Source: a virus | Strand: one strand, 5' to 3' | Length of the DNA stretch: 64,000 bases | IMG/VR virus record: IMGVR_UViG_3300002098_000002 | In this document: positions 4,613 to 58,540 of the stretch, piece by piece | Position numbering within the stretch: the first letter of the stretch is position 1 | Layout of the letters: each line of letters starts with the position of its first letter | Program-made: the position numbers and the translations under genes | The notes under the pieces: generated by a model | Database searches by the model: none | The model's input: only the letters and a program-made list of their open reading frames with translations | Told to the model about the DNA's origin: nothing

Positions 4613-5279
4613 TGTAACCCTTGTTGCTGTGGATACACGTTCTCACGCATTGACGAGGTTGGCACTAGATAAGTGTAAGCAGTTTGTAGATTTTGGTGAT
4701 GTTCAGTTCCACACTGACAAACCAGACTTCATGGAAGCCCTTGAAACTTATGTGAAAACTCCATTTTTCCAAGAGTTAACACATGTGGCGGCGTGGTGCT
4801 GGTATGGCGTCCCGCAAACAATTAAGACCAGCCACGTGCTGTTCATCCACTGGGATAGCTGGATACTAGATCCAACTGCTTGGACAGATGATTTCCTTAC
4901 ATATGACTACATCGGTGCCCCATGGGAATGGCACAAGGATGGCATGACTGTGGGGAATGGTGGCTTCTGTTTGCGCTCAAAGAAGTTGATGGATTTCCTA
5001 GTTGAACACAAAGAAGACTACCCGCTTATGAGTCCTGAAGATGACATGCTGTGCAGGCAGTACCGCAGGCCATACCTTGAGAAAGAAGGCTTCAAATGGC
5101 CTTCCACAGAAGTAGCCCTAAAGTTTGCTTTCGAACGCTCTGTACCACAAACAGAGCACTTTGGATTCCATGGTGCCTTTAACTGGTGGCGGGTGCTTAC
5201 ACCTGATGAATTCTCAGAACGGATCAAGTTGATAGCTGAAATTCCATCCATGCACAAAATGCTGTTCCAGCAACAATAG
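4593..5279 (+). CDS. glycosyltransferase-like protein (DUF5672-like)
   Basis: 228 aa overlapping the upstream gene by 20 nt. LPDVTLVAVDT..., IHWDSWIL and GNGGFCLRSKKL resemble what I recall of the DUF5672 family. Assignment is from memory only. Confidence 0.4.
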   Translation: MKLQLPDVTLVAVDTRSHALTRLALDKCKQFVDFGDVQFHTDKPDFMEALETYVKTPFFQELTHVAAWCWYGVPQTIKTSHVLFIHWDSWILDPTAWTDDFLTYDYIGAPWEWHKDGMTVGNGGFCLRSKKLMDFLVEHKEDYPLMSPEDDMLCRQYRRPYLEKEGFKWPSTEVALKFAFERSVPQTEHFGFHGAFNWWRVLTPDEFSERIKLIAEIPSMHKMLFQQQ

Positions 5280-16473: not shown

Positions 16474-17108
16474 TGACAGTCAAACAGATTAAAGGTATCT
16501 GGCTTCCAGCCACTGAGAAGCACTTTGCTGAAAGTCCATTCCTTGGGGATAAGTACCCAATCTTGGATGAAGCTTTAAAATTCATCCCTAAAAGTGAAAG
16601 GCACCTTGCAATAGATGTTGGAGCACACATAGGGCTATGGTCACGCTGGCTTGTTAAGGAATTCAAAGAGGTAATAGCCTTCGAGCCTTGTGAAGATTAC
16701 TCCGCAATCCTTAAGCAGAACGTGCCTGCTTCAAATCTAAAAATTGAGAAGTACGCCCTTGGTGCCTCATATGGATCGGTATCCATCAGAACTTATCCTG
16801 AAGACACAGGGCTGGCGCATATTGACGGGTATGGCACCATCCCAATGGTACCATTGGATAGCTACAGCATAAAGAACTTGAGCCTCATAAAGATTGATGT
16901 TGAAGGGTATGAACTCCAAGTCATCCGGGGCGCAACAGCGACCCTGACTAAAAACTCTCCAATAGTTGTCATCGAGCAAAAGGGGCACGACGTAATCAAT
17001 TTTGCTGAGAAACGTGATGCTGCCAGCGAAATGTTGATGGACCTTGGCTTCCACAAACTAGGCCATATTGGCGCAGATTACATCTTTGGTAAGTACAAAT
17101 ATGACTAG
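16473..17108 (+). CDS. FkbM-family SAM-dependent methyltransferase
   Basis: AIDVGAHIGLWSRWLVKEFKEVIAFEP (SAM-binding motif I plus the acidic loop) and IKIDVEGYELQVIRGA are typical of Methyltransf_21/FkbM. Confidence 0.7.
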   Translation: MTVKQIKGIWLPATEKHFAESPFLGDKYPILDEALKFIPKSERHLAIDVGAHIGLWSRWLVKEFKEVIAFEPCEDYSAILKQNVPASNLKIEKYALGASYGSVSIRTYPEDTGLAHIDGYGTIPMVPLDSYSIKNLSLIKIDVEGYELQVIRGATATLTKNSPIVVIEQKGHDVINFAEKRDAASEMLMDLGFHKLGHIGADYIFGKYKYD

Positions 17109-21014: not shown

Positions 21015-22020
21015 ACTGGTGCAGCCTGCCGTAGCTGGGAGTGATTTAGTACCAATCTTCTCCTGCTATATGTTCAAAACGAACCATATCTCAGCATACA
21101 ACGACCAACTAGCCATTGAGGCTACGTTTGACTGTGGCGATACGCCTTTCGCTGTCAACGCAATGACATTGTTGGGGTTGTTGAAGAACACCCACACGGA
21201 AGAAGTTGAGTTTACCCTTGATAAGAATGATCTTGAGATCAAGGCAGGCAAAAGCAACCTGAAACTCCCCTATTTCAATTCAGATGAATTTCTCTTTGAG
21301 GAACCTGAAGAACAGTGGATGGCTGCGCTGCCGGTCAATGAAAACCTGACCAAAGGCATTGAAATCTGCCTGACCACGGCTTCCAATGACAACTCTCAGC
21401 CTGCCATTATGGGTGTGTGTTTCAACTTTGGAAAAACAGCCACATTGTACTCCTGTGACAGTGATGCTGTTACTCGTTTCAATCTTGAAGGCAAAGCCAG
21501 TGGTAAAGGCGTTTACACGGTATCAAACACCTTCTGTAGCGCCCTATTGAAAATCTGCGCTGAAACAAAAACCACTAAGGGCAAGATGGACCTTGGTGAA
21601 GGCTGGGTACGTGTTTCACTGGAAAACGGCTTCACCTTGTATGGCCGCTTGATCGTCAACGACAGCCCACTCAATCATGAAGAACTGATTGAAAAGACCA
21701 TGACGGGTGATACCCCATTTGTGGATGTACCCTTGGGATTCGACGAAGCCTTGGCCCGTGCCCGCGTAGTTGCCGATTCCAGCAGTGCTTCAACCTCCCT
21801 GAGCATCAAAAAGGGCGTCATGTCCCTGTTCACTGAGACGCCCAGCGGTGTGGTTGAGGATACAGTGAAGATTAAGGGTCACCCTGACGTTGAGGCTACC
21901 ATTCATGCCTCACTCGTGTGTAAATCACTCAATATCTGTAACGAAATATCTATCCGTGAAAATTGCGTTTCGTATCGAAACGGTGAAACCACGTTACAGG
22001 TTGTCAGTAATATAGGTTGA
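20983..22020 (+). CDS. dnaN: DNA polymerase III beta sliding clamp-like protein
   Basis: 345 aa. The N-terminus LIKTLELVQPAVAGSDLVPIFSCYMFKTNHISAYNDQLAIE follows the DnaN pattern. The size fits three clamp domains. Confidence 0.7.
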   Translation: MNRISLIKTLELVQPAVAGSDLVPIFSCYMFKTNHISAYNDQLAIEATFDCGDTPFAVNAMTLLGLLKNTHTEEVEFTLDKNDLEIKAGKSNLKLPYFNSDEFLFEEPEEQWMAALPVNENLTKGIEICLTTASNDNSQPAIMGVCFNFGKTATLYSCDSDAVTRFNLEGKASGKGVYTVSNTFCSALLKICAETKTTKGKMDLGEGWVRVSLENGFTLYGRLIVNDSPLNHEELIEKTMTGDTPFVDVPLGFDEALARARVVADSSSASTSLSIKKGVMSLFTETPSGVVEDTVKIKGHPDVEATIHASLVCKSLNICNEISIRENCVSYRNGETTLQVVSNIG

Positions 22021-24656
22021 TTCCTTTGGGTTTTTTCTTCTCTAAAAAGAAACAGGAAGCTAAACGGAGGCCTCAGGGCCTCCGCTCTGCTCCTGTGACC
22101 AAGCAAAACAAGGAAATCCTCAACAGGCTTGGCTGTAAAGCCTGCCCGTTGGATAAAGCCAAGGTTTGCACGCCTAAAATGCCCCCTGTGCTGGCTAAAG
22201 AAACCCTTATTTACTTCCTTGGTGACATACCCAGCCAATATGATGACGAACAAACTGGCAAGCCCCTTACTGGCGTTTACGGGAACGTTCTTCGTGAGTG
22301 CATCCCTAAGGGTGAACTTCCCTACTGCTCCTTTGACAACGTAGTCCGTGACAGGCCCCCGGAAGGCAGGCAGCCTACATGGAATGAGATAGAAGCATGT
22401 AGGGGCAACATCATTGCGAGCATTGAACGGGCAAAGCCCAAACTGATCGTAGGCTTGGGTGTTCCAACACTGTCATGGGCTTTAGGCTCAACCGACATGG
22501 ATGGGATGCGCGGGCGCGTGTTCTCCATCAAGGTTGGAAAGCACACATGCTGGTTCATGCCTACTTGGCACCCGGAACTGGTTTACAGGTTTGCTTACAA
22601 CAAGAAAAAGCCCCTGACCTCTAGGCTTGGGCACTGCCTGCGTATGGATATCCTGCGGGCATTTAAATCTGCCGATCAGCTACCTGAAGCCACGGTTGAC
22701 ACCGAAGAAATGGCTAGGGCGGGCGTACAGACGTTTGACGGGCATGGGGGCGCTAACAGCCTACAGACGCTGCTGGACCTCATGGCTGAAGCCCTGAAGG
22801 CCCCTGAAAAGGCTGTAGACATTGAAACGAGCTGCCTGCGTCCATTTGCACATAATTCCCGCATCCTTACGGTAGCAATCAGCTTTGGTGACACGCATTT
22901 CTCATTTGCCGTGGATCACCCTAAGGCGGGGTGGCAGAAACCTGACAAAATAAATATCCTGAACCTTTTGGAAGAAATCCTTAAGGATGACACCAAGAAA
23001 ATAGCCCATAATCTTCCATTTGAACTTGAATGGTTCATAGAATATTATGGTAAGGAAGTTGTTAATCATGCTGCTGGCGAATGCACCATGATGCAGGCTC
23101 ATTTGATAGATGAGCGCCGTGGTAAGCAGGTTAAAGGTGGCGATATAGATTCACGGCGCAGTGCTTATCAAAGCCTCGATTTCCTTATCAAGCAGTATTT
23201 TGGTATTGCCTATAAAGGGCTGTTTAAACTGAATAAAAAGGATATGGCCAGCGCTGATCTGGGTGAAACGCTGGTCTATAACGCAGTAGATACTAAATAC
23301 ACGTTGCGGCTACATAAGCATCAAAAAGCCATCCTGAAGCGTGAAGGCTTGTTACAAGCCTACGTTGATGCGTTGCCCCGTCAGTCCTCTGTAGCCATAA
23401 TGCAGCATATTGGCATCCATGTGTCTCAGGACGAAGTCAAAAAGGCACAGGAGAAGCTTGGTACTGAAATTGAAGGAATCCTTAAGCAAATTAAGGCCCT
23501 GCCGGTCATCAAGCAGTACATTAAAGATAAGAAAGAATTTAACCCACAATCTGGTGATGATGTAATCGCAGTCTTCAGGGACTACCTGAAGCGCCCTGAG
23601 ATTGAAATTACTGACAAAAAAGGTGTCACGAAAACATCAGTTGATAAGAACGTCCTTGATAAGATTGACCATCCTCTTTCACAGCTACTTATCCAGTTAC
23701 GAAACCGGGCAAAGGTCAAATCCGTCAATGTTGATCCCTTTGAATTAGGAAAGGGGGAGTACATTTGGCCAGATGGAAAAATACACACGAATTTCAACAC
23801 GACATTTACTGAAACAGCGCGCACATCTAGTGATTCGCCAAACCTTCAGAATTTTCCAAAACGTAATGATTCTTGGGTACGTAAGGAGATAAAACCTGAA
23901 AAAGGGCATGTGTTGCTGGCTTTCGACTACGGGCAGCTACAGGCATGTACTGCTGCTATGTGCTCCAAAGATAAGGCTTGGGTCAAAGCCTTGTGGGAGG
24001 ACTATGACACGCATATGGAATGGGCACAGCGTTTGAATAAGATTGATCCTGACCTGACTTTCCAGCACGTTAATGGTGATATGAAGGATCCAAAGACAGC
24101 CAAGAAATACAGATCAATAATCAAGAACAAACTAACCTTCCCCGCCATTTTTGGTGCAACGAATGAATCTATTGCCGGTTATTTAAATGCCAACCCTGAA
24201 TCCATTGAAAAGGTGATGAAAGACTTCTGGCGCACATTCTCAGGGCTAAAGAACTGGCAAGATGCCTTGATGCGCGGATATTATGAAAATGGGTATGTAA
24301 TAGACCCCGTTGGACGTAAGCACAATTACCCAATAACCCGCAACCAAGCCATCAACTATCCAGTTCAGGCTGCTGAAGCTATTATCGTTTGTGATGCCAT
24401 GAATAAACTCTCTATAGAAGCTTCAAAATCAGGGGATTGGTTCAGGCACCCAATCTTGAACATTCACGATGATCTGACCTTTGTCGTCCCTGATGATGAC
24501 AAAATAATCGAGGACGTTATAGAAAAGACTTACAAAATAATGCTTACCCCTAAATATGATTGGATCAATGTTCCATTGGCTGTGGAATGCAGCATTGGGC
24601 CGGACTGGTTCAACATGCAGGACGTTGGAAAGTTTTATTCGAATAAGGATCTCTAA
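22017..24656 (+). CDS. polA: DNA polymerase I (family A) with 3'-5' exonuclease and N-terminal family-4 UDG-like domain
   Basis: UDG-like: CKACPL, FLGDIPSQYDDEQTGKPLTGVYG, VVRDRPPEGRQPTWNEIEAC, KLIVGLG, TWHPE. Exo I: AVDIETS. Pol motifs: LAFDYGQLQ (A), RSIIKNKLTFPAIFGA (B), INYPVQ, NIHDDLTF (C). TTG start overlapping the upstream stop. Confidence 0.85.
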   Translation: MIPLGFFFSKKKQEAKRRPQGLRSAPVTKQNKEILNRLGCKACPLDKAKVCTPKMPPVLAKETLIYFLGDIPSQYDDEQTGKPLTGVYGNVLRECIPKGELPYCSFDNVVRDRPPEGRQPTWNEIEACRGNIIASIERAKPKLIVGLGVPTLSWALGSTDMDGMRGRVFSIKVGKHTCWFMPTWHPELVYRFAYNKKKPLTSRLGHCLRMDILRAFKSADQLPEATVDTEEMARAGVQTFDGHGGANSLQTLLDLMAEALKAPEKAVDIETSCLRPFAHNSRILTVAISFGDTHFSFAVDHPKAGWQKPDKINILNLLEEILKDDTKKIAHNLPFELEWFIEYYGKEVVNHAAGECTMMQAHLIDERRGKQVKGGDIDSRRSAYQSLDFLIKQYFGIAYKGLFKLNKKDMASADLGETLVYNAVDTKYTLRLHKHQKAILKREGLLQAYVDALPRQSSVAIMQHIGIHVSQDEVKKAQEKLGTEIEGILKQIKALPVIKQYIKDKKEFNPQSGDDVIAVFRDYLKRPEIEITDKKGVTKTSVDKNVLDKIDHPLSQLLIQLRNRAKVKSVNVDPFELGKGEYIWPDGKIHTNFNTTFTETARTSSDSPNLQNFPKRNDSWVRKEIKPEKGHVLLAFDYGQLQACTAAMCSKDKAWVKALWEDYDTHMEWAQRLNKIDPDLTFQHVNGDMKDPKTAKKYRSIIKNKLTFPAIFGATNESIAGYLNANPESIEKVMKDFWRTFSGLKNWQDALMRGYYENGYVIDPVGRKHNYPITRNQAINYPVQAAEAIIVCDAMNKLSIEASKSGDWFRHPILNIHDDLTFVVPDDDKIIEDVIEKTYKIMLTPKYDWINVPLAVECSIGPDWFNMQDVGKFYSNKDL

Positions 24657-34718: not shown

Positions 34719-35038
34719 TCTGCCCTCGAAGATTTAACAACGCTTCGTTCAGACATGGCAAGTTGGCGCTCTTGTGAGCCTTTCCACACATGAACACCAA
34801 GGACGGCAAAGCGCCCGGTTAGATAAAAAGTTATAATTGGAGTCAAGTCTACTAGGGCTTTGACTACAAACTGGTGCCCCATTGCTACCGAAAACATAGT
34901 CCCGGCAACAACAAGGGGCATTTCAATTGTAAGTTCCCATGCCTGAACAGCACGCCAGCGGCCCCACCAGCCATCCCCAGTGGCCTGCTGGTCTAAAAGA
35001 TCATCTGTGGCGTCATCATTAGCCACTTGCCCACTCAT
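34715..35038 (-). CDS. holin-like protein (2 TM)
   Basis: 107 aa immediately after the endolysin. Two hydrophobic helices (MPLVVAGTMFSVAMGHQFVV and LTPIITFYLTGRFAVLGV) and a charged C-terminus. Confidence 0.5.
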   Translation of the reverse strand: MSGQVANDDATDDLLDQQATGDGWWGRWRAVQAWELTIEMPLVVAGTMFSVAMGHQFVVKALVDLTPIITFYLTGRFAVLGVHVWKGSQERQLAMSERSVVKSSRAD

Positions 35039-35654
35039 TTGTCAGTTCTTCATCAGTACCTGCGTAACTGTCCATATCAATTTGGTTGCCGGGGTTAATA
35101 CCGGGTACAGTTATCTCGTTGTTGTTTACACCATCTCCTGAGAACTGATGCAAAAAATAATTATCCCAAGCCGGTGGCCACTTAGGTTTGTTGTTGTAGT
35201 GTGCCAGCCAGAGCTTATGCGATCCGAAGAATTCACTGTCAGCATCACCAAGTTGTTCCTTGATCAGGTTACCGCTGTAAAGGACAAGCTTACGGCCTAG
35301 CTGGTCACGGGCGCTTTCAAGGAAAGCCTGAGCTCCATCTAAATCAAGTTCGTTGCCCTTGTTTGGCTCATGATCCAAAGCCATGAGGGTGTTGGCATCA
35401 GCACCGGCTACATCAAGGAAGTGCTTAACCTGAAGGTCTACATCGTCAGCCGTGGCAAAATGGTAAAAGCCAATAAGGAGGCCAGCTTTTTTGGCTGCTT
35501 CAGCTCGGGGTTTCGCTGTTGGATCTATGTAAGCAACACCTTGTGTTGCTTTAAAAATAACACCTCTTATGCCAAAAGCATACATCTTCTCAAAGCCGCC
35601 CGGATCAACAGTATTGTGATGCGAAATATCAATGACCTTAAGGTTCGGCATCAA
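35019..35654 (-). CDS. glycoside hydrolase family 25 endolysin (muramidase)
   Basis: VIDISHHN, GIRGVIFKATQG, FYHFA and LALDHEP match the GH25 lysozyme pattern. Confidence 0.85.
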   Translation of the reverse strand: MMPNLKVIDISHHNTVDPGGFEKMYAFGIRGVIFKATQGVAYIDPTAKPRAEAAKKAGLLIGFYHFATADDVDLQVKHFLDVAGADANTLMALDHEPNKGNELDLDGAQAFLESARDQLGRKLVLYSGNLIKEQLGDADSEFFGSHKLWLAHYNNKPKWPPAWDNYFLHQFSGDGVNNNEITVPGINPGNQIDMDSYAGTDEELTNEWASG

Positions 35655-43753: not shown

Positions 43754-44002
43754 TTACATCCCTCCCTTAAGAGCCTTGGCCATCATCATATTTGGATTGC
43801 CTTTGGGCTGATTGTAATACGCATTGGCGGCAGGGACAGCAGATGGTACCGAATAGCTTGATGGCGCGGCATAACTTGAACGGAATGGGTTTGCTGGATA
43901 ACCCTGCGCTATATTTCCCTGCTGACCGGGGACAGCTTGCGTACCAATATTCTGCCTATTAACGGCAGAAGCGTTGTATCCCGGTGGAGGTGAAAAAAGC
44001 AT
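43754..44002 (-). CDS. small Pro/Ala/Tyr/Asn-rich protein
   Basis: 82 aa of low complexity, 1 nt from the downstream gene. Confidence 0.5.
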   Translation of the reverse strand: MLFSPPPGYNASAVNRQNIGTQAVPGQQGNIAQGYPANPFRSSYAAPSSYSVPSAVPAANAYYNQPKGNPNMMMAKALKGGM

Positions 44003-44004
44003 AA

Positions 44005-44463
44005 CTAACCTTGCTGCTTCTGTACTTCTGCTTGAGGTACTCCAGCAACTCTTTCAATCTGATCACGGAAAGCTACGAAACGGACAGCGGTATTCCTGCT
44101 GCAATCACGGATACCATACTGACAACGCTGGACACCTTCAAGTTTAAATCCGAACCTTTGAAGGGATCGCATCAATCTTTTGTTCTTTTTCGAAGTCAGG
44201 ACAGTCATTCGACTGGCATTGAATTCGTGTACAACAATCTTTGAGATAACGCGAACGATACCTAAAGTAAGTGTCCATGGCCCGTAATAGCTCAGTTCCA
44301 CATTGTAGCCGTTATAGTTGGTGAAGAGAATGGCCCCCACCAAAACACCGTCATCATTATCAACTATCCCAAGAACCCTATTATAGGTAACAGGAATACG
44401 CTGGAAATGCGTAAAAGCCCAGCTAGCAATTCGTTCATCGTCACCGATTAATATTCCGTACAT
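44005..44463 (-). CDS. GNAT-family N-acetyltransferase (putative)
   Basis: 152 aa. GVLVGAILFTNYNGYNVELSY ... MRSLQRFGFKLEGVQR fits the GNAT beta4-alpha3 and C-terminal GF-x-x-EG pattern. Confidence 0.5.
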   Translation of the reverse strand: MYGILIGDDERIASWAFTHFQRIPVTYNRVLGIVDNDDGVLVGAILFTNYNGYNVELSYYGPWTLTLGIVRVISKIVVHEFNASRMTVLTSKKNKRLMRSLQRFGFKLEGVQRCQYGIRDCSRNTAVRFVAFRDQIERVAGVPQAEVQKQQG

Positions 44464-44988
44464 TTAACCCATCATTCCTACTGGTGGTGCTTGTAATGGT
44501 GCTGGGGGTTGTGGAGGTGGCATACCAAGCATCCCGTAATTAGGCTGCTGTGGTGCTTCTGGTGGAGGTACATCACCCAAGTAAGGCATCGGGGCGTAAC
44601 CTTGTGCCATTGGCGTACTCATTGGTGTTGCCGTCGTTGCCCCACCAAGCCCAGTATTGCCCAAGGCAGCGACCATTTGAGCAGCCTGATCATTCCCTGC
44701 GTTTTGTGTGGCTGGGTCGGCACCAAAGGTGCCTCCGGCTGGTGCCAGTGGCATGTCACCAGCTCCACCAAGGTTCGTGCCAAATTGTGGCGGGGCAGCA
44801 CCTTGAGAAGGAACAGAGTTTGTCGCCATGGGCGCAGAAGAAAGCCCATTAGGCATCCCACCATTCATTCCAAATGGGTCAGACCCTATACCAAGTGAGG
44901 TATCCTGACCTGTGGGTTGAGGCTGCTGTTGCGACAACAGTGCAAGCATTTGTTGCACGGTATCTGGTGACATCCCGTTAGTATCCAT
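44464..44988 (-). CDS. Pro/Gln/Gly/Met-rich low-complexity protein
   Basis: 174 aa with no predicted globular segment. Ends GMPPPQPPAPLQAPPVGMMG. GGTGGGAT lies before the ATG. Confidence 0.55.
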   Translation of the reverse strand: MDTNGMSPDTVQQMLALLSQQQPQPTGQDTSLGIGSDPFGMNGGMPNGLSSAPMATNSVPSQGAAPPQFGTNLGGAGDMPLAPAGGTFGADPATQNAGNDQAAQMVAALGNTGLGGATTATPMSTPMAQGYAPMPYLGDVPPPEAPQQPNYGMLGMPPPQPPAPLQAPPVGMMG

Positions 44989-45090: not shown

Positions 45091-46743
45091 TCATATGAAA
45101 CCGCCAAGCTCTAATATCGTGTTGAATGAATTTACTTGGAGAATCGAAGCAGCGCCCGCACTGCTCTCAGAATTAAAGGTAGCAGCATCGAACTCTCCTA
45201 TATCAAACCCACCAATAACAACTGTTGTCGCAGCTTGTACGTTAACTTGCATACGGATGGCTAGAGCATGGCCAATGGCGTCAACACTTAACCAAGGTTG
45301 CACAACCACTGTGTTTTCTGGCCACAAGGCTATATCCCAAGATGAGAAGTCCCAAAGAGCGCCGCCTCGAAGAATAGAAATCGGTGCCGAAGTGGTAGCA
45401 GTGTTGAAGTCTTCGTCAACCGAAATGGTGGGCGTGATAGAGCCACTGGCCACCATTTGAGGCTGAACCATAGTTACTCTTTTTAGGCGACCCGGATCAT
45501 CAAAATAGTTAAAGGCGCACTGCATGTCAGCCATAATTGGCTGATCGAAGTCAGTGCCACTGTCAAAAGCTTTATTCACGCTTCCGTCATTGGAGCCAAA
45601 ATAAAGATCTTCATTAAAGATCTCAAAACAGTTAGCACTCCAACCATCAATTTCGCACCATGCGCCTGTTAAGGCACACATAACATACTGAATTTGTTGA
45701 ACATTTTCAGTAAGAGGTACATTCAAGATAGCTAACTGCTCGGCTGGAAAACCTAGAACCTGCCAACCAAAGTTATTTCTGGCCTGTGTGATAGCTTGAG
45801 CCATGGCGTTCTGAATACGGGCAGTAATGGCCACGCTTCTATCAGCGCTTGGATCAAACGGAAGTGCCTGAGAAAGAGGAAGAACCCCCTGAAGGGTGAT
45901 AACAGCCACGTCCGAACCAACACGGGTGCAGCAACGGTAACTGATAGGTGGTGAAATATCGAAAGTACCTACCAAATTCCAATTGGCAGCATTGGTTGGG
46001 TCACCACCAGCATAAATACTGATCTGCCCACGGGAAGACAAGAACACCGCATAGTCTTGAGGGCCGCTGCCACCGTCAATAGTCCAATCGGCCATGGCCA
46101 CAAGCCAGCCGCCCTTTGACCAAAGCTGACCAAAATCAAGGTATCCAGCGATAGCGCCTGTAATGGCCCCCGTAGGCATGAAAGCAATGATGGTAGTATC
46201 CTTAAGGACGTACCAAAGGCGGCTTTTCTGAGCGTAGATGTTTACGATGCTGGCAGTCGTAGCCGCATTGGGCAACCCAGTGATGGCTGGCGTGGACCAC
46301 GCTGTGCCATTGTACTGACGCAGGCTGTCTACACCGTTAACGCATTGAATAACCGTAGTTCCAGCCGGTGGTGTGAATGACGAATACTGCCAACGGGCCG
46401 ATGAAAGCCCTGAAACTACAGATGAATAGGCTCCATATGTTGAAACATCATAGATATTGGTGCCCGCTGCTGCGAACATTTCCTCAGCATTACCCGGTGG
46501 CCTGTAAACCATCAAAGTTTCTACAGGCGAATCAGTCATTTTTCTGACCCAACCTGTGTAACCAGCACGCAGTTCAATCCAACCGGGGCGCGGTATCCAG
46601 TTGGTCAAGATGGGCGCACGCTTGGGGTCCATAGACGACAATGGCGAAATAGCATCCATACCCTCAGTCGGCGCTGGAACCACTTTTGTGATCGTATCAG
46701 GCGCTGGAAATGGTGCTTTTTGTAGGGATTCTACTTTACGCAT
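45091..46743 (-). CDS. virion structural protein (tail/nozzle candidate)
   Basis: 550 aa beta-rich ORF in the structural operon. No motif recognised. Confidence 0.6.
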   Translation of the reverse strand: MRKVESLQKAPFPAPDTITKVVPAPTEGMDAISPLSSMDPKRAPILTNWIPRPGWIELRAGYTGWVRKMTDSPVETLMVYRPPGNAEEMFAAAGTNIYDVSTYGAYSSVVSGLSSARWQYSSFTPPAGTTVIQCVNGVDSLRQYNGTAWSTPAITGLPNAATTASIVNIYAQKSRLWYVLKDTTIIAFMPTGAITGAIAGYLDFGQLWSKGGWLVAMADWTIDGGSGPQDYAVFLSSRGQISIYAGGDPTNAANWNLVGTFDISPPISYRCCTRVGSDVAVITLQGVLPLSQALPFDPSADRSVAITARIQNAMAQAITQARNNFGWQVLGFPAEQLAILNVPLTENVQQIQYVMCALTGAWCEIDGWSANCFEIFNEDLYFGSNDGSVNKAFDSGTDFDQPIMADMQCAFNYFDDPGRLKRVTMVQPQMVASGSITPTISVDEDFNTATTSAPISILRGGALWDFSSWDIALWPENTVVVQPWLSVDAIGHALAIRMQVNVQAATTVVIGGFDIGEFDAATFNSESSAGAASILQVNSFNTILELGGFI

Positions 46744-50173: not shown

Positions 50174-50410
50174 TTACCGTCTAGCTGTTGTTCTATTCAT
50201 CCAAGCTTCTAACACACTCATGGGAATAGGTGCAATCTTTGGATCCTTCATTTGGCCTGTAACGTAGGGGGCCGACAAAGGTGTTGGGCCTGTGGCCCCG
50301 CCTGTGGGCTGCATAGGCAACGGCACCACGTCTCCAGCTACCTGTTGACCCTGTGGCCCACGCTGAAGCGCCGCAATCATTGCTAGACGTGGATCAATAG
50401 GGTCCTGCAT
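50174..50410 (-). CDS. small hypothetical protein
   Basis: 78 aa. Starts 1 nt after the TPR-GT gene stop. Confidence 0.5.
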   Translation of the reverse strand: MQDPIDPRLAMIAALQRGPQGQQVAGDVVPLPMQPTGGATGPTPLSAPYVTGQMKDPKIAPIPMSVLEAWMNRTTARR

Positions 50411-51832
50411 TTATGCCGCCTGTGTTTCTGTGTTTTGTTCCACAAACTCATGCAAAGCGTCGGCTAATTGTCCCATGACAGGCGTCCAATCATTGGGGGC
50501 TGTCTGGTTAAACAGGCGTACACTAGGGTACCAAGGCGTATCTGTGCGGTCTTTAAGCCAACGCCAGCAACCATCCCACCTGCTAAGAATCCAAGTAGGC
50601 TTACCTAGGGCTGCTGCAAGGTGCGCCACCGCCGTATCGACAGTGATAACAAGATCGAGTTCTTTAATCAAGGTTGCCGTATCGTAGAAATCGTCCAGAT
50701 CAGGCGTCCAATCGCCAATAGTCATGCCGCGCATTGGCGTGTTAATCTGTTCAGCAGGCGGACCCTTTTGAAGGGATACCCAGCTTACACCCTTGATCGA
50801 AGCAGCGGGGGCGAAACTAGCCAGCGTGGTTGACCTGAGCCTGTCCACATTCTGTGCCTGTGGGTTGTCAGCCCTGCTCATTCCAGCCCAGCAAATACCA
50901 ACCCTAAAACCCGGTGGGAGTTTGGCTAGTTCCGCCTTCCAGTAATCATGACGGTTATCGTCAATGTTGAAATAGGGGCCATTCCACACAGGTTCTTCAA
51001 AGTCATGTGGCTTTGTAAGGGAACCAAGAACACGGGGGATAGACATCATTGAAACAGCGTAATCAACGCCTTCAGGAATCTTCTCCCCAAAAGAAATGAC
51101 CTGATCAATCCCCTTAACCGTCTTGATCAAGCGAACTAGGGGGTTCCGCACTTCCACTATAACATAGCAGTTATAGTGGGCTTTCAAGATAGGGGCGTAG
51201 CGAACAAATTGAAGGGCATCACCAAAACCTTGTTCGGCGTAAACAAGGATGGTTTTTCCATGCAGGGGTTCACCCTTCCACTCAGGGATCTTCAGACCAC
51301 GGGGCTTAAGTTGATCTGACTTCCAGCGCCATTCAAATTCCTTCCAACCTTCTTCAAGTTGGCCGTCCATAAGCAACGCAAAGCTGAGGTTAAGGTGAGC
51401 GTCTACATAATCTGGATTGGCTTCCACGGCTTTGCGGTAATAATCAATGGCCTCTTTAAGTCTGCCGGACCACTTAGAAGTCCGACCCAGATTCATAAGG
51501 GTTTCGGGGAGATTGGGATCGATTTCGATGGCTTTTTTGTACGCTTCAATAGCTTTTTCAGTGCTAATTTCACTGTCAAAAAGAGCAGCGCCCTTATTAT
51601 TGTAGTAACTAGGCTCTTGAGGAGCCAAAGCAATAGCTCTATCAAAATTGAGTATTGCATCGAAATATGCGCCTAGCTGCATAAGGGCCACGCCACGATT
51701 ATTCCAAGCTAGTGGAATATCTTCATTGGCTACTAGGACTTTTGTAAGGATTTCTAGGGATTCCGCTGCCTGACCCTTATTCAGTAAATCAATGGCGCGG
51801 ACGCAATTTTGCTGGATACTTTCAGAACTCAT
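50411..51832 (-). CDS. TPR-repeat protein fused to GT9-like glycosyltransferase domain
   Basis: The N-terminal 150 or so aa carry TPR repeats (AWNNRGVALMQLGAYFDAILNFDRAIALAP..., AIEAYKKAIEIDPN, AIDYYRKAVEANP). The C-terminal part has GKTILVYAEQGFGDALQFVRYAPIL ... LVITVDTAVAHLAAALGKPTWIL, typical of GT9-type GT-B folds. Confidence 0.7.
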   Translation of the reverse strand: MSSESIQQNCVRAIDLLNKGQAAESLEILTKVLVANEDIPLAWNNRGVALMQLGAYFDAILNFDRAIALAPQEPSYYNNKGAALFDSEISTEKAIEAYKKAIEIDPNLPETLMNLGRTSKWSGRLKEAIDYYRKAVEANPDYVDAHLNLSFALLMDGQLEEGWKEFEWRWKSDQLKPRGLKIPEWKGEPLHGKTILVYAEQGFGDALQFVRYAPILKAHYNCYVIVEVRNPLVRLIKTVKGIDQVISFGEKIPEGVDYAVSMMSIPRVLGSLTKPHDFEEPVWNGPYFNIDDNRHDYWKAELAKLPPGFRVGICWAGMSRADNPQAQNVDRLRSTTLASFAPAASIKGVSWVSLQKGPPAEQINTPMRGMTIGDWTPDLDDFYDTATLIKELDLVITVDTAVAHLAAALGKPTWILSRWDGCWRWLKDRTDTPWYPSVRLFNQTAPNDWTPVMGQLADALHEFVEQNTETQAA

Positions 51833-51855
51833 AACTTCGTCCTTGTTACAGGGTT

Positions 51856-51897
51856 ACACAAAAACCCCTACGCCAAATTGGATTTTGGCGTAGGGGG
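51856..51897 (-). terminator. rho-independent terminator after the 194-aa gene
   Basis: 13-bp stem CCCCTACGCCAAA/TTTGGCGTAGGGG (51865-51896), followed on the minus strand by TTTTTGTGT. Confidence 0.8.
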
Positions 51898-51905
51898 ATT
51901 TCTTC

Positions 51906-52490
51906 TTAGGCGCTTGAGCCTACAACTGGGTAGTTAAGTACCGCAGTGTTAGGGCCTGCAACCGAACCAGTGGCCTGTGTGATGACAATGCCATTGATCT
52001 GATACGTGGTACCAGCACCACCAGCCGTGGTGCTCACGATACCAAGGGTGGTAGCGCTCGAGTACAGTTGGGCGTTCTTGGTGGTCGAAGCCGCTGACTT
52101 GATGCCTTGGGTGTTACCCGCACGTTGCAGCCAGAAGTATGAACCAGTCTGACTACCCGATGGGGCAGGAACAGCAAGGCTGCCGTTAGCACCGCTAACA
52201 ACACCAACAAGCTGCCCAACAGGGGCAGAAGCGGCAGCGATGGTAGAGCCGCCGATTGCGGCTACTGACCAAGAACCCGGCACTGCTGACACAACGACAA
52301 CAGAACCAGCCGCAAGGGTTACGCTTGCGGTGCAGTAAACGAACTCAGAACCATCCGTGCCCCAAGCAAGTTCGCCGGGAAGGAACGGAGGAGCTGGGTA
52401 CTCAGGGTATTGCGCCACGTTCAGGAGGAAGACATTGTTAATGTCGATGCCTTCCTGCGTTGTGGTACTATAAATTGCTGCGGCCATCAT
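51906..52490 (-). CDS. abundant virion protein candidate (Ser/Thr/Ala/Gly-rich)
   Basis: 194 aa with AAAGGAGG upstream of the ATG, followed by a strong terminator. Beta-rich composition. Confidence 0.6.
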   Translation of the reverse strand: MMAAAIYSTTTQEGIDINNVFLLNVAQYPEYPAPPFLPGELAWGTDGSEFVYCTASVTLAAGSVVVVSAVPGSWSVAAIGGSTIAAASAPVGQLVGVVSGANGSLAVPAPSGSQTGSYFWLQRAGNTQGIKSAASTTKNAQLYSSATTLGIVSTTAGGAGTTYQINGIVITQATGSVAGPNTAVLNYPVVGSSA

Positions 52491-52583: not shown

Positions 52584-52895
52584 TTACACAAGCAGTAGAC
52601 AAGCTTTATAGACAAGATTTGCTGATGCAAAAACCTGTCCAATCCTATTCTTAAGGAAGTTTAGCTCTTTTGTCGATAAGGTGATTGGCTTGTTAGCCTG
52701 AATAGATACACCAATCTTATCAACAAGCTTACCTCGTTCCAATTTTACTTCCAAGGCTTCACCCTTATCAGTGTCAAGAACCGAATCAAGCGCTACGAGC
52801 GCCATGCGCCCCAACGTAAGCGGTGGCCCATCCTTTTCAGCAATAGTCTGACCACTGATATCGAGCATAAGCGTATCGAACTTAACTTTAGACAT
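52584..52895 (-). CDS. hypothetical protein
   Basis: 103 aa with TGGAGAT upstream of the ATG. Confidence 0.55.
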   Translation of the reverse strand: MSKVKFDTLMLDISGQTIAEKDGPPLTLGRMALVALDSVLDTDKGEALEVKLERGKLVDKIGVSIQANKPITLSTKELNFLKNRIGQVFASANLVYKACLLLV

Positions 52896-52969
52896 ACTTT
52901 TATCTCCATTTTACTTAAATAGCGGGTTTGTTTTTCTAAACAGAATAACAGGTTAAGATCAACTAAATC

Positions 52970-55473
<2,504 letters not shown>

Positions 55474-55483
<10 letters not shown>

Positions 55484-55806
55484 TGTGCCACACCGAGGTT
55501 GACGGAACCGCTAGTATAAGCGGTCACTTTCAAACGGACCCCGGTTACTGGATAAGCAATGTTGCTGTTAGCACTGGCTGTAAGGCCAGTTAGAATATCA
55601 TGGTCATTCCAATTGCCAGTAGCGCTGGGGATTTGATCCGCAGTTACTTGCACTGAATAGGTCAGGCTTCCACCTGATGAAACTGTGACGATGAGGCCAA
55701 GGGCATAAGCAGGCGCTGCCTGCCACAACATATTCTGTGGTGGGCTGACTTTAATAGGTGTTGCTGAACCTACAGCGCTCAGTGATGAAGAAGCATATGC
55801 GCTCAT
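55474..55806 (-). CDS. hypothetical virion-module protein
   Basis: 110 aa, beta-rich, overlapping neighbours by a few nt. Confidence 0.55.
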
Positions 55807-56336
55807 TACGAAGCCCTTATTCTTTCACGCTTCCAAACCCTTGAGGCATATTCAGGGCTGTCTTCTTTATCGATTTCAGCCTGTGCTACTTGTGCGCTGT
55901 CGATCTTCATAGCAGTACCAAGCCTGATGCTCAACGATCGGACTTGTGCTTGGAGCAAATTAACTTGTTCTGTCGAACTTTCAATCTTTTTCTCAGCGAC
56001 AGCCAAGAGCTCTTCAGCCGCAGCAAGTTTCTCAGCAGCTTGCTCTTCCTTTATTGCAAGCGCCTTAACGCGGGCATCAATCTTGGCTTGTTGTGTTTTG
56101 AAATCTTTTGCGTCAGTGAAGAACTTGGTTTGATTAACAATCACTTCGGCATTTTCAAAGGTCTGTGCCGCTTCAAGCAGCATGGCTGGAAAACATTCGT
56201 CACAAGCGTGAATGTTTGGGCCAATTTCACCGTCTTTAGACAGCCTTATATCCAATCCAACCAGATCAAATTTCCTTGAACCTGCTGTAGCTGGATTGCA
56301 CGGGTTGTCACAGCGATCACAAAACGCTTTTAACAT
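55806..56336 (-). CDS. coiled-coil protein with CxxC pairs
   Basis: 176 aa. CDRCDNPC and CDEC near the N-terminus, then a long helical region. Confidence 0.55.
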   Translation of the reverse strand: MLKAFCDRCDNPCNPATAGSRKFDLVGLDIRLSKDGEIGPNIHACDECFPAMLLEAAQTFENAEVIVNQTKFFTDAKDFKTQQAKIDARVKALAIKEEQAAEKLAAAEELLAVAEKKIESSTEQVNLLQAQVRSLSIRLGTAMKIDSAQVAQAEIDKEDSPEYASRVWKRERIRAS

Positions 56337-56345
56337 ACACAGACC

Positions 56346-56669
56346 TCAAATCCCGTTACCGGGGGTAAAGTACACAATAGGGGTACCTGCACCGCAAATA
56401 GCGGCTACATGTGTGACCAGATCACCTATAGAAACAATTATGGATTCGCCGGGGCCTACAGGGAATGAACCACCCGTAGCGCCACTAGGGACAGTAGCAA
56501 CAATTGTAGAAGCACCAAAAGCCACAAAGGCTGTGTTGGTAGCATCAACGTTCTTAATTCGAACTGTTGTAGCGTGTTTTGGGACGAGGGCCACGTTGGC
56601 TGTAGTAACAGCACTGGTAATGCTGACAGTAGCCTGTGTGTTTGGACTAAAAGGTTGAGCAGCGGGCAT
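56346..56669 (-). CDS. hypothetical small beta-rich virion-module protein
   Basis: 107 aa with GGGAATAACGG upstream of the ATG. Confidence 0.55.
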   Translation of the reverse strand: MPAAQPFSPNTQATVSITSAVTTANVALVPKHATTVRIKNVDATNTAFVAFGASTIVATVPSGATGGSFPVGPGESIIVSIGDLVTHVAAICGAGTPIVYFTPGNGI

Positions 56670-56712
56670 CCGTTATTCCCTTTTTAGGGCGAACTCAGGG
56701 TCAAGTTTAGCT

Positions 56713-57426
56713 CTAAACAATCTGTTCCTGATTGTCGATACAGGTAATCTTTTGTTCAGATTTTCTCTTCTTTAGAAGAGCTGCTTTCTTATTAGCTAGT
56801 GCTAATTGGGCCAAGCCGCGTGCTCTATATTCAGGATCTAACCATCTTTCTTTAGCCCTAACCCTTCTTTTCTCAATAACTTCTGGATCCATATTCATCA
56901 AAGCAAAACTTTTTCGATATTCATCACGCCGGGCGTCAGCTTCAGGCCTAGTCCAAGCTTCTTTAACTTTCGAACTAATGACTTTAGAATTTCTCTTTTT
57001 GCCTTCTGTGGCCTTTGCCTGAAATTCAGGGGAAGACATATGCTTAACCCTCTCAGCACGTTGCGCTGGGCTAAGGTTTTGCCAATAAGATTTATGCGCT
57101 TCCTGCATCCGTACACTTGGTGTGCGTTGTGCTACTGGAAAAGCACAATTAAATCCAAATTCAGCTTCTGAAGCTTTGGTTTTAAGGATCCAATCCTGCT
57201 CTACCCTTTTAAGAAATTCTTCAGGGCAGGCTTGAATTACTTTTTTCTCAAAAGCACCAGCTCCATACTTATCCCAAGCGGATTGAAGATGCCTGTTGCC
57301 ATGCTTGCCTTTTCGCAATGCTCTGAAATGATCTTGCAGCCGGGTTTTGCAATCAATCGAAGAGCCGATGTATATCTTCCCAGAAATGGTACAACGTATT
57401 TCATAAATACCAGATATTTTAGTCAT
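56713..57426 (-). CDS. GIY-YIG homing endonuclease
   Basis: SGIYEIRCTISGKIYIGSS...R...H...GKHGNRHLQSAW is the GIY-YIG catalytic domain. The start was taken at the internal ATG (MTKISGIY) just after the capsid-gene hairpin. Confidence 0.8.
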   Translation of the reverse strand: MTKISGIYEIRCTISGKIYIGSSIDCKTRLQDHFRALRKGKHGNRHLQSAWDKYGAGAFEKKVIQACPEEFLKRVEQDWILKTKASEAEFGFNCAFPVAQRTPSVRMQEAHKSYWQNLSPAQRAERVKHMSSPEFQAKATEGKKRNSKVISSKVKEAWTRPEADARRDEYRKSFALMNMDPEVIEKRRVRAKERWLDPEYRARGLAQLALANKKAALLKKRKSEQKITCIDNQEQIV

Positions 57427-57433
57427 AAAGACT

Positions 57434-57477
57434 CCTACGGCGCAGAACCGGTTTTTAGCCGAAAACTGCGCCGTAGG
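57434..57477 (-). terminator. strong hairpin downstream of the major capsid gene (terminator/attenuator)
   Basis: 12-bp stem CCTACGGCGCAG/CTGCGCCGTAGG with a 20-nt loop. The T tract after it on the minus strand is short (AGTCTTTATG). Confidence 0.5.
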
Positions 57478-57508
57478 CAATTTAACTTTGGGTTGTAATC
57501 TTGGTAGA

Positions 57509-58540
57509 TTACGCGCCGAGATAGCCTTGCAGAAACGAGTTCGAGACTGTCATGTTCCCGGCCCAGCCAATGAGGCGTACCATTGCATCTTGGTTAACTG
57601 AGAACCTGTCGGGGTCTAACGGCACCATGTTTCTTCGGCTGTGTGGCCTCCAATGTAGATATTTTGTATTCAACATGTACATCGTCGTAGATGGAATGCC
57701 ACCCAAGCCACTGGTGCTGCTGCTGGTCTGCGGAGGCAGCGGATCACTGCTGAAGCCTTGGAAGCCACCGTCAAGCACGACGTCGGCGTTCAGGTACTTC
57801 AGCGACTGGAATCCAGCCTCAGCCATATCAGGGGCAGCGTTCTCGGTCTGAATACGCTGAATAGCCTGTAGGGCGTTCAGGTAATACTTATACATCACGT
57901 TATCCGCGATGATCAGATCCGGGAAGTCACGGCCACGGATCAGCTTCACCCACAGCGAGTCCATTTGCTGAAGGATGGTAGCTGAACTGAGAACCGCGTT
58001 ACCGTCAGTAGCAGCCGACCACGTCTGGTTCTGCCAGAAGGTCCACTGCGAACGGTCAATACCACCAACCGTGCCGGTCGAAGGCGAAGCAGCAACAAGG
58101 AGCTGCAAGCCACCAATCGAGTTGGTTACGGTACCGTCACCATAGATGCCCTGTGAAAGGCCGTTCATGAACGTGTCTTCCGCGTTCATAATGCGGCTTT
58201 CAAGCAAGTCGATGATGGCTTCCTCACCTGAGTTCTGGAGCTCTTCCAGACCAGAGATAGAAACGGCCACAGCCGACTGGCGGATTGGGAATTCCGCCGC
58301 CGTGAACACTTGGCTAGGCGCAATGTTCAGGGTCTGGTAACCAGAGTACCATTGATAGGTCTGGTTATCAGCGTAGTTCAGTTCTTGAACGATGGTACGA
58401 CCACCGCTGAATGTCTTGAGATTGCCCTTACGAGTCAAGCGCAGCAGCGTGGCGTTGTTGCGGGTCATGTTGTCCGCAAGTTCACCGGTACGGTTGCGCA
58501 GAGTCGTGGTGACAATTTCCGACAGATTTGGAAATGCCAT
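57509..58540 (-). CDS. major capsid protein
   Basis: 343 aa located directly after the scaffold-like gene and downstream of the portal. AAAGGAG precedes the ATG. It has a long structured 5' UTR and a 3' hairpin. The N-terminus MAFPNLSEIVTTTLRNRTGELADNMTRNNATLLRL resembles podoviral capsid proteins as I recall them. Confidence 0.7.
   Translation of the reverse strand: MAFPNLSEIVTTTLRNRTGELADNMTRNNATLLRLTRKGNLKTFSGGRTIVQELNYADNQTYQWYSGYQTLNIAPSQVFTAAEFPIRQSAVAVSISGLEELQNSGEEAIIDLLESRIMNAEDTFMNGLSQGIYGDGTVTNSIGGLQLLVAASPSTGTVGGIDRSQWTFWQNQTWSAATDGNAVLSSATILQQMDSLWVKLIRGRDFPDLIIADNVMYKYYLNALQAIQRIQTENAAPDMAEAGFQSLKYLNADVVLDGGFQGFSSDPLPPQTSSSTSGLGGIPSTTMYMLNTKYLHWRPHSRRNMVPLDPDRFSVNQDAMVRLIGWAGNMTVSNSFLQGYLGA

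Follow-up and report, generated by a model that had tools for sequence, protein, structure and literature searches.

A TPR-fused, distantly GT9-like protein encoded in a phage head module is a candidate virion-protein glycosyltransferase

Why should a phage carry, among the genes for its virion, one that joins tetratricopeptide repeats (TPRs) to a predicted glycosyltransferase (GT) domain? The question is posed by positions 50411 to 51832 of a 64,000-nucleotide stretch of viral DNA, IMG/VR record IMGVR_UViG_3300002098_000002 (the whole stretch is hereafter the window), which encode a protein designated here TPR-GT. The answer favored is that TPR-GT may be a late-expressed protein O-glycosyltransferase of the FlmG/OGT kind that glycosylates a virion protein, with p194, the product of the neighboring upstream gene, as the prime candidate acceptor; taken as a whole, this reading is held with evenly balanced confidence. 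Its parts differ in strength. TPR-GT is very probably an active glycosyltransferase; the chances that it targets a virion protein are somewhat better than even; and the proposal that p194 specifically is the acceptor is tentative, its chances lying below even. Activity, acceptor, donor, O-linkage, and the roles of accessory enzymes are all things we infer. Glycosylation of phage virions (in mycobacteriophages) and protein glycosyltransferases of TPR-GT-B architecture (FlmG, OGT, and SPY) are already known. What is new is (i) the presence in phage head modules of a predicted transferase that is fused to TPRs and distantly GT9-like, (ii) its strict pairing with a cement-like ORFan, (iii) a hypervariable sugar island at the junction of the two genes, and (iv) the recurrence of the enzyme across several capsid lineages.

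The gene and its parts are as follows.

50411 to 51832, minus strand: the TPR-GT gene, with an ATG start, encoding 473 amino acids (aa); predicted soluble, without a transmembrane helix
51320 to 51832, minus strand: N-terminal TPR domain, aa 1-171, ten helices (Pfam and AlphaFold2 [AF2] model); proposed acceptor-binding module
50414 to 51319, minus strand: C-terminal GT-B domain, aa 172-473, distantly GT9-like and predicted to be catalytic (AF2 secondary-structure order, BFVD, and hhalign)
51218 to 51235, minus strand: EQGFGD motif, aa 200-205, right behind the first beta-strand of the GT domain
50597 to 50641, minus strand: VDTAVAHLAAALGKP signature, aa 398-412, a GT9-type nucleotide-sugar-binding motif

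A first-pass annotation of this DNA had proposed that a single gene combines a TPR module with a GT-B catalytic domain, and the protein bears this out. Pfam TPR families cover aa ~10-165 far above their cutoffs (TPR_11 at 87.1 bits against 26.8, with TPR_1 at 76.1 and TPR_2 at 74.3), and the AF2 model, computed from an alignment of 55 full-length homologues with 45-59% identity, attains a pLDDT of 93.2 and a pTM of 0.90. In this model, aa 3-171 form ten helices, or five TPR-like pairs, and there are PDB profile matches to the TPR regions of OGT and SPY. The remainder of the chain folds into two Rossmann-like alpha/beta halves (194-~300 and 309-442) and a C-terminal helix (450-472), which, as modeled, is the GT-B layout. 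The peak 19-residue hydropathy of 1.54 is below transmembrane strength; lacking a transmembrane segment, TPR-GT would be a soluble cytoplasmic protein, located in the compartment where virions assemble.

The further claim that the catalytic domain is GT9-like survives in a weaker form. PF01075 (Glyco_transf_9) exceeds its cutoff of 22 bits with a score of 28.2, over aa 385-413 only (29 residues). On this same stretch, the NCBIfam models for heptosyltransferase I, RfaQ, and RfaC, whose cutoffs are 170-467 bits, reach no more than 13-23. A profile of the C-terminal domain (CTD), built from 40 phage and bacterial sequences, finds four matches among PDB sequences, all of them heptosyltransferases I or II (HepI, HepII), at E-values of 0.18-0.47, and the CTD of TPR-GT alone has no match among PDB sequences with phmmer. 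Aligned by hhalign, the CTD profile pairs with E. coli WaaC at 76% and with WaaF at 62% probability, in each case over the 32 columns of the nucleotide-sugar signature, in which VDTAVAHLAAALGKP lies against 'VSVDTGLSHLTAALDRP' of WaaC and the corresponding WaaF motif. At the other end of the domain, G204-D205 takes the position of G12-D13 in E. coli WaaC, whose N-terminus reads 'VLIVKTSSMGDVLHTLP'; Asp13 is the catalytic base of HepI. Residues E200, Q201, G202, G204, D205, D399, T400, and H404 are invariant among the 55 homologues, and EQGxGD and VDTxxxHLAAALGxP are the two family-invariant motifs when the 55 full-length sequences are considered together with the 40 CTD sequences, down to 35% identity.

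Structural comparison of the catalytic half against BFVD retrieves models labeled 'Glycosyl transferase family 9' (TMt 0.75-0.77), 'RfaF', and Aah/TibC-like. When the whole TPR-GT model is compared with the PDB by Foldseek, the best matches are SPY, OGT, and Xanthomonas XCC0866 (E-values of 2.5e-14 to 2e-10, TM-score ~0.35); this list is dominated by the TPRs, so the GT-B families cannot be ranked from the PDB matches. Pfam Glyco_transf_41 (PF13844) has no match on TPR-GT at E<=1. Canonical membership in GT9 was rejected on the marginal E-values of the CTD matches, which comprise HepI and HepII only, and the description 'distantly GT9-like' was kept. The motifs thus describe the catalytic domain of TPR-GT as a distant GT9 relative that has its catalytic-type residues intact, rather than as a heptosyltransferase. 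Its homology to heptosyltransferases does not extend over the full length, so that heptose cannot be taken for granted as the donor. The regions surveyed showed no genes of a heptose pathway, and the NDP-hexose-type epimerase/dehydratase and C-methyltransferase genes found in relatives would, if anything, point to donors other than ADP-heptose. A 302-aa 'GT9' gene in one relative (L002; genomes and loci are cited by such L numbers) was considered as a member of the CTD family and rejected, with an hhalign probability of 0.7%.

Among characterized enzymes, one close likeness in architecture is to FlmG of Caulobacter and Brevundimonas, the flagellin O-glycosyltransferase, which the first-pass annotation had described, correctly, as TPR plus GT (PMC7591256). 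Like TPR-GT, FlmG has an N-terminal TPR and a C-terminal GT-B domain in one soluble polypeptide; its TPR part binds the acceptor, and its GT-B part sets donor specificity (PMC7591256; bioRxiv 10.1101/2022.03.25.485807). It is a soluble cytoplasmic enzyme whose acceptor is a Ser/Thr-rich, surface-exposed subunit that is modified before assembly (PMC7591256; bioRxiv 10.1101/2022.03.25.485807). FlmG differs in that it is larger (596 aa), has a longer TPR region (1-313), and transfers pseudaminic or legionaminic acid. It is encoded together with flagellin and nonulosonate genes, unlike TPR-GT: no flagellin or nonulosonic-acid (Pse/Leg) genes occur in the window or within four genes to either side of 80 bacterial homologues. 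No NCBIfam model for FlmG matches TPR-GT.

Three other groups of enzymes offer partial parallels. The GT41 enzymes OGT, SPINDLY, and XCC0866 likewise have a TPR superhelix that feeds a GT-B domain, and they glycosylate Ser/Thr residues of proteins; TPR-GT departs from them in its GT9-type catalytic motifs, in a structural similarity that is largely TPR-driven, and in the missing Glyco_transf_41 match. With the GT9 enzymes WaaC/HepI and WaaF/HepII it shares the G-D pair after beta-1 and the VDTxxxHLAAALxxP signature, whereas these enzymes have no TPRs and act on lipid A-Kdo. The BAHT enzymes TibC and Aah use a GT9-like fold in protein Ser O-glycosylation, an earlier example of relatives of GT9 that act on proteins; one weak structural match to TPR-GT is a BFVD phage protein labeled Aah/TibC. 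BAHTs are dodecameric, lack TPRs, and contain a Cys-rich iron-finger. The only cysteine of TPR-GT that is invariant among the 55 sequences is C422, which argues against a four-Cys finger of the BAHT type.

If the catalytic domain suggests what TPR-GT does, its genomic position may suggest to what. The features that matter here are the following.

57509 to 58540, minus strand: major capsid protein (MCP), phrog_9953 (E 3e-106)
52970 to 55483, minus strand: 837-aa Ser/Thr/Gly-rich fibre, 24.5% Ser+Thr (rank 2 of 77); alternative acceptor candidate
51906 to 52490, minus strand: p194 (193 aa as called from the second Met), predicted capsid cement/decoration protein of beta-tulip type
51855 to 51896, minus strand: intrinsic-terminator-like hairpin with T-run; 13-bp stem with 8 G-C pairs, then TTTTTGTGTA
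50174 to 50410, minus strand: 78-aa open reading frame (ORF) whose ATG abuts the TPR-GT stop codon; a homologue exists in L001, and most relatives lack it

The operon on the minus strand reads, from TerL onward, TerL, HNH, an 878-aa portal-sized protein, proteins of 106, 226, and 403 aa, MCP, GIY-YIG, and proteins of 107, 176, and 110 aa, and continues with the 837-aa fibre, a 103-aa protein, p194, TPR-GT, and proteins of 78, 258, 120, and 320 aa. The MCP is 52% identical to that of Bradyrhizobium phage ppBjS10J-1 and 46% to that of Mx8, and the 320-aa protein downstream of TPR-GT is SU10-adaptor-like (tail phrog_6013). TPR-GT therefore lies between head and adaptor genes, in the middle of a virion operon, as had been claimed from the sequence. 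Earlier remarks on its upstream neighbor also stand: p194 is Ser/Thr-rich (21.6% Ser+Thr, rank 6 of the 77 window proteins) and strongly terminated, the hairpin inside the 73-nt gap between p194 and TPR-GT being the best in the 10-kb region scanned. The fibre is indeed nearby and Ser/Thr-rich, as had been noted, but its link to TPR-GT is not conserved among relatives.

The position bears on the proposal that the enzyme glycosylates phage DNA bases, or some other non-protein molecule, which we consider highly improbable. DNA-glucosylating phage enzymes of the GT-B fold do exist, and diverse phage GTs hypermodify DNA. Against this, the TPR-GT gene lies in the head module rather than in the DNA-metabolism module, the TPR arm points to a protein partner, and the regions surveyed (the 64-kb window and a 10-kb flank) hold an N6/N4 methyltransferase and standard replication genes only, with no hydroxymethyl-pyrimidine or TET-type pathway. 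The replication module occupies the other half of the window and comprises genes for DnaB-like, SNF2 helicase, N6/N4 methyltransferase, UDG-PolA, and clamp-loader-like AAA proteins as well as gp32-like, RecA, and Mre11/Rad50-like proteins. Its UDG-PolA gene is a single ORF of 879 aa (22017-24656, plus strand) that joins UDG, 3'-5' exonuclease, and family-A DNA polymerase domains.

What kind of protein is p194? A clade-restricted ORFan, it has no Pfam, PHROG, or NCBIfam family, no match in 50,697 phage genomes, and a best PDB profile E-value of 1.1. Its 397 homologues are all ~190 aa long, with 66-100% identity among the matches listed, so that p194 is better conserved than the enzyme. The AF2 model is all-beta (pLDDT 80, pTM 0.79), and its best Foldseek match is a 166-residue chain of the cyanophage Pam3 capsid, chain G (E 1.2e-3, probability 1.0), most likely the cement protein gp6. 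Pam3 gp6 consists of a beta-tulip domain and a beta-strand domain and forms trimers at the three-fold axes (PMC9942802). The rest of the top four PDB matches are a HFTV1 capsid chain and two chains of the base by which the phi29 head fibre gp8.5 binds the capsid, so that the top four are all auxiliary capsid proteins; lower in the list stand two phi29 prohead chains, a Sf11 capsid chain, and, weakly, gpD/SHP. On this structural evidence, p194 is assigned with moderate confidence as a beta-tulip-like capsid cement or decoration protein, in agreement with its position ~0.5-1 kb after the MCP gene in smaller relatives (L008 and L012).

The terminator adds a further trait. A G+C-rich hairpin follows the p194 homologue in every relative examined, and a T-run as well except in L006/L010. 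The hairpin sequences are unrelated among relatives, and the hairpin is present whatever gene comes next. Conservation of structure rather than sequence suggests that p194 is a highly expressed structural gene and that the enzyme is made at a lower level by read-through.

Taken together, these traits suggest the following mechanism. The TPR superhelix of TPR-GT would dock a phage structural protein, and the GT-B domain would move a sugar from a host nucleotide-sugar onto Ser or Thr. This would take place in the cytoplasm, before or during virion assembly, with p194 as the abundant cement/decoration protein that receives the glycan. Two enzymes encoded elsewhere in the genome would probably extend or methylate the glycan, and the outcome would be a glycan-coated capsid. 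The genes for these two enzymes are:

4593 to 5279, plus strand: DUF5672 protein (PF18922), likely an accessory glycan-tailoring enzyme; early region, 45 kb from TPR-GT
16473 to 17108, plus strand: FkbM-family methyltransferase (PF05050; TIGR01444 at 83.5 bits), possibly a sugar O-methyltransferase

The DUF5672 protein has no relative among PDB sequences.

Is the pairing of p194 and TPR-GT conserved? An identical TPR-GT protein occurs in 41 contigs, the longest of 90,954 bp, and full-length homologues with 45-59% identity are found in many contigs of 87-94 kb, which come from soil or peat. The comparison set consists of 15 distinct related genomes, three of which were retrieved through p194 homologues and not through the GT. 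The p194 gene lies upstream of TPR-GT in all 15, either adjacent, with one small ORF between, or with a sugar cassette between, and each of the three genomes found via p194 has a 467-475-aa TPR protein 73-83 nt downstream. The conserved order in the 15 genomes is MCP, p194, TPR-GT, ~260 aa, ~120 aa, and ~320 aa.

The stretch between MCP and p194, on the other hand, is hypervariable among these relatives and holds fibres of 505-1,120 aa, arabinofuranosidase-like or laminin-G-like proteins, or almost nothing. Upstream of p194 in L002 and L174-L176, for example, are PF09206 arabinofuranosidase-catalytic-like proteins (312 and 515 aa) and a laminin-G_3 protein; the counterpart of this segment in the window is 52584-57480. 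Its products may be head fibres or glycan-binding appendages. The C-terminal ~190 aa of the 837-aa fibre (52970-53560, minus strand) are extremely Gly-rich, with GGGGG/GSG runs preceded by Ser/Thr-rich repeats; this region has no Pfam or PHROG family and has short segments in common with the fibres of L005, L002, and L016.

This variability is what tells between p194 and another acceptor in the head module, be it the 837-aa fibre, the MCP, or a different protein, in which case the adjacency of p194 would be merely positional. We regard such an alternative as unlikely. The fibre is the second most Ser/Thr-rich protein of the window, the TPR protein of cyanophage S-SRM01 lies downstream of a putative tail-fibre gene (and near a sulfotransferase and a glycosyltransferase), and in L016 the TPR-GT gene overlaps that of a fibre-like protein; in mycobacteriophages, the protein reported to carry the glycan is the MCP. 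Relatives do not conserve the 837-aa fibre, however, and its region is hypervariable or absent where p194 is constant, and the MCP, 79-96% identical, shows no obvious Ser/Thr-rich extension, a statement made short of detailed analysis.

At the junction of p194 and TPR-GT, some relatives carry an island of sugar genes (L001:6478-10001, L005:9295-9984, and L006:2414-9785). In L005 the island is DUF5672 alone. In L001 it comprises an FkbM methyltransferase, a radical SAM/SPASM protein, a 253-aa protein, and DUF5672, and in L006/L010 it holds DUF5672, a sugar C-methyltransferase (Methyltransf_13/14), two NDP-sugar epimerase/dehydratase/reductase genes, DUF6016, and others. The equivalent site in the window, 51833-51905, contains the terminator and nothing more. 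Copies of the window's DUF5672 protein (40-45% identical) adjoin TPR-GT in L001, L005, L006/L010, and L008/L009 as well as in the bacterial loci L105 and L109, and L063 has a further copy ~8 kb from its TPR-GT. FkbM genes stand beside TPR-GT genes in L001, in a second group of phages (group B, described below), and in podovirus MW202512. Were TPR-GT not an active transferase, it would be difficult to account for a glycan-tailoring island in this place.

The same island speaks to whether TPR-GT might lack catalytic activity and serve instead as an assembly chaperone or a minor structural component, its TPRs and a degenerate GT fold being used for binding alone. TPR proteins are often chaperones, the Pfam GT9 match is short, and the gene lies amid assembly genes. 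Set against these points, the catalytic-type residues are invariant both at 45-59% identity and down to 35%, and co-localized sugar-synthesis and tailoring genes are sensible only with an active transferase. We therefore think a non-catalytic role very unlikely.

The family to which TPR-GT belongs extends well beyond this clade. A word-indexed search yields more than 4,500 matches; confirmed matches in IMG/VR number at least 543, and those in bacterial genomes at least 591. Bacterial carriers include Azospirillum, Bradyrhizobium, Paraburkholderia, Planctomycetes, and cyanobacteria. The catalytic domain alone accounts for 39,092 cluster representatives. The top-scoring relatives of this domain are giant proteins of 800-3,140 aa with 2-6 tandem domain copies. 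An MCP of one of three unrelated families is found near TPR-GT in 50 of 86 viral loci, at a median distance of 1.5 kb and a maximum of 7.4 kb, and in none of 80 bacterial loci.

The phage groups differ in what surrounds the enzyme. In the second group (29 loci), the flanking gene of TPR-GT encodes an ORFan of 239 aa and 24% Ser+Thr, and also near are a stand-alone GT9-like protein, FkbM and other methyltransferases, GT25, and a Mu-gpT-like MCP. In group-B viral loci L019-L059, the gene that comes directly after TPR-GT (L033:1739-2506, for instance) encodes a 255-aa protein containing the motif GGMGD. Its hhalign alignment to the catalytic domain of TPR-GT spans 184 columns at 69% probability, which suggests a stand-alone second GT9-like transferase. 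The third group has a 275-319-aa Ser/Thr-rich neighbor and a phrog_138 MCP. In podovirus MW202512 the order is MCP, two small proteins, the TPR protein, an endonuclease, FkbM, and a GalT-like protein.

The abundance of the family in bacteria, tandem paralogues included (arrays occur in 15 of the 80 bacterial loci), implies cellular substrates and thereby raises the prospect of a host target. The enzyme might act on the LPS core, on a protein of the cell surface or the flagellum, or on a factor in the cytoplasm, in the service of superinfection exclusion, takeover, or receptor masking. Its nearest sequence signature is that of LPS heptosyltransferases, and the TPR domain is equally able to bind a host protein. 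Several traits argue otherwise: the gene lies within a late structural operon rather than in an early or moron region; the protein has neither a membrane anchor nor Gtr-type partners; the association with capsid genes recurs in at least three unrelated phage lineages; and it is specifically between the p194 and GT genes that the sugar island has its place. A host target is thus doubtful, and a little more so than another acceptor in the head module. A role as a defense or anti-defense component was rejected, as PADLOC gave a trivial TPR match alone. The host itself is probably Gram-negative. Two phage-sized contigs of ~92 kb have been binned into Acidobacteriota metagenome-assembled genomes (MAGs): L002 (GCA_035710845.1, 'Candidatus Angelobacter sp.') belongs to this clade, and L154 (a 92,186-bp contig of a 'Terracidiphilus sp.' MAG) has a 37%-identical TPR-GT homologue. 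These bins point, weakly, to an acidobacterial host.

Several observations weigh against TPR-GT being a glycosyltransferase of virion proteins that acts on p194. As to the enzyme, its similarity to GT9 is confined to ~30-50 residues, no characterized member of the family was found in the literature searched, and no nucleotide-sugar pathway is present in the regions surveyed. As to the acceptor, the structural matches of p194 are modest (TM-scores of 0.37-0.57, with one alone at an E-value near 1e-3), which is why its assignment as a cement protein carries moderate confidence only; its place in the virion, and its abundance there, are presumed. Nor is its Ser/Thr-richness specific: the fibre and several small head-module proteins are equally rich or richer, and across the 77 window proteins, many of whose structural members are rich, the median Ser+Thr content is 11.4%. 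As to the linkage of the two genes, a gene order conserved inside a single clade may be due to common descent and not to any functional coupling. In L016, the start of TPR-GT overlaps the stop codon of a fibre-like protein of 706 aa, which contains 32% Ser+Thr and has repeats in common with the 837-aa fibre. A single conserved substrate family across lineages was rejected, as p194 aligns with the Ser/Thr-rich neighbors of the two other phage groups at hhalign probabilities of 0.07-2.6%. These non-homologous neighbors, together with the fibre partner in L016, mean that the acceptors, if such they are, would be lineage-specific. Around the bacterial homologues (80 loci, four genes to either side), no recurrent neighbors were found except paralogous TPR-GTs; without a conserved partner there, a cellular function cannot be transferred to the phage enzyme. 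The phage, finally, is known from metagenomes only.

A broader proposal builds on the virion-glycosylation reading and is possible without being probable. TPR-GT9-like enzymes would be the priming transferases of a widespread, modular glyco-coating of capsids in environmental phages, in which the TPR arm docks a lineage-specific capsid accessory protein and a hypervariable sugar island diversifies the glycan, giving rise to capsid 'glyco-serotypes' in numerous phage lineages that are unrelated to one another. The island would then be analogous to O-antigen or flagellin glycosylation islands. In extent, the proposal would take in no fewer than 543 IMG/VR contigs and no fewer than three or four capsid families. 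Should the role of the family be the one that its genomic setting indicates, phages that infect Gram-negative hosts in soil and freshwater would commonly bear glycan-coated capsids, and a conserved anchor with a variable sugar cassette would constitute a natural system for diversifying phage surface chemistry, with consequences, for example, for stability, for adhesion, or for escape from recognition by hosts, grazers, or immune systems. The proposed enzyme-substrate pair is small (473 aa and 193 aa), and its design, a TPR targeting arm joined to a GT-B domain, would be portable for engineering glycosylated phage particles.

To our knowledge, experiments have demonstrated phage-encoded virion glycosylation in essentially no phages other than some mycobacteriophages, in which it changes how antibodies recognize the particle. 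Mycobacteriophages Che8 and Rita encode glycosyltransferases that act on their virion proteins and give rise to a glycan shield (Freeman et al. 2023, as cited in PMC11256854 and PMC12582341). Phages of the Che8 type have their GT genes near the 3' end of the genome, the MCP as the reported acceptor, and actinobacterial hosts, and no TPR-fused GT is described in them. Here, by comparison, the GT is TPR-fused and lies in the head module beside a cement-like protein, in a genomic context favorable to such a role, and the host is probably Gram-negative.

The remaining observations concern other genes of the window and its flank. A GIY-YIG homing endonuclease (56713-57480, minus strand) lies directly downstream of MCP and is found in some relatives only (L002 and L011); this patchy presence is consistent with a mobile insertion. 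A second endonuclease, of the HNH type, lies between terminase and portal, just beyond the window (L171:5665-6120). A GNAT-type acyl-CoA N-acyltransferase (44005-44463, minus strand; phrog_4470) is encoded in the structural operon, with 46-56% identity in relatives, and Bradyrhizobium phage ppBjS10J-1 has a GNAT gene at a comparable position; it could represent a second modification of virion proteins, namely acetylation. A 550-aa protein (45091-46743, minus strand) amid conserved structural genes matches phrog_5107 'amidase / lysis' (E 6e-100). Pfam recognizes no amidase domain in it, and a separate GH25 lysozyme is encoded at ~35019-35654; the PHROG label may thus be misleading. Two low-complexity, Pro/Gln/Gly/Met-rich proteins of 82 and 174 aa (43754-44002 and 44464-44988, minus strand), which have no family match, could be internal or ejection proteins.

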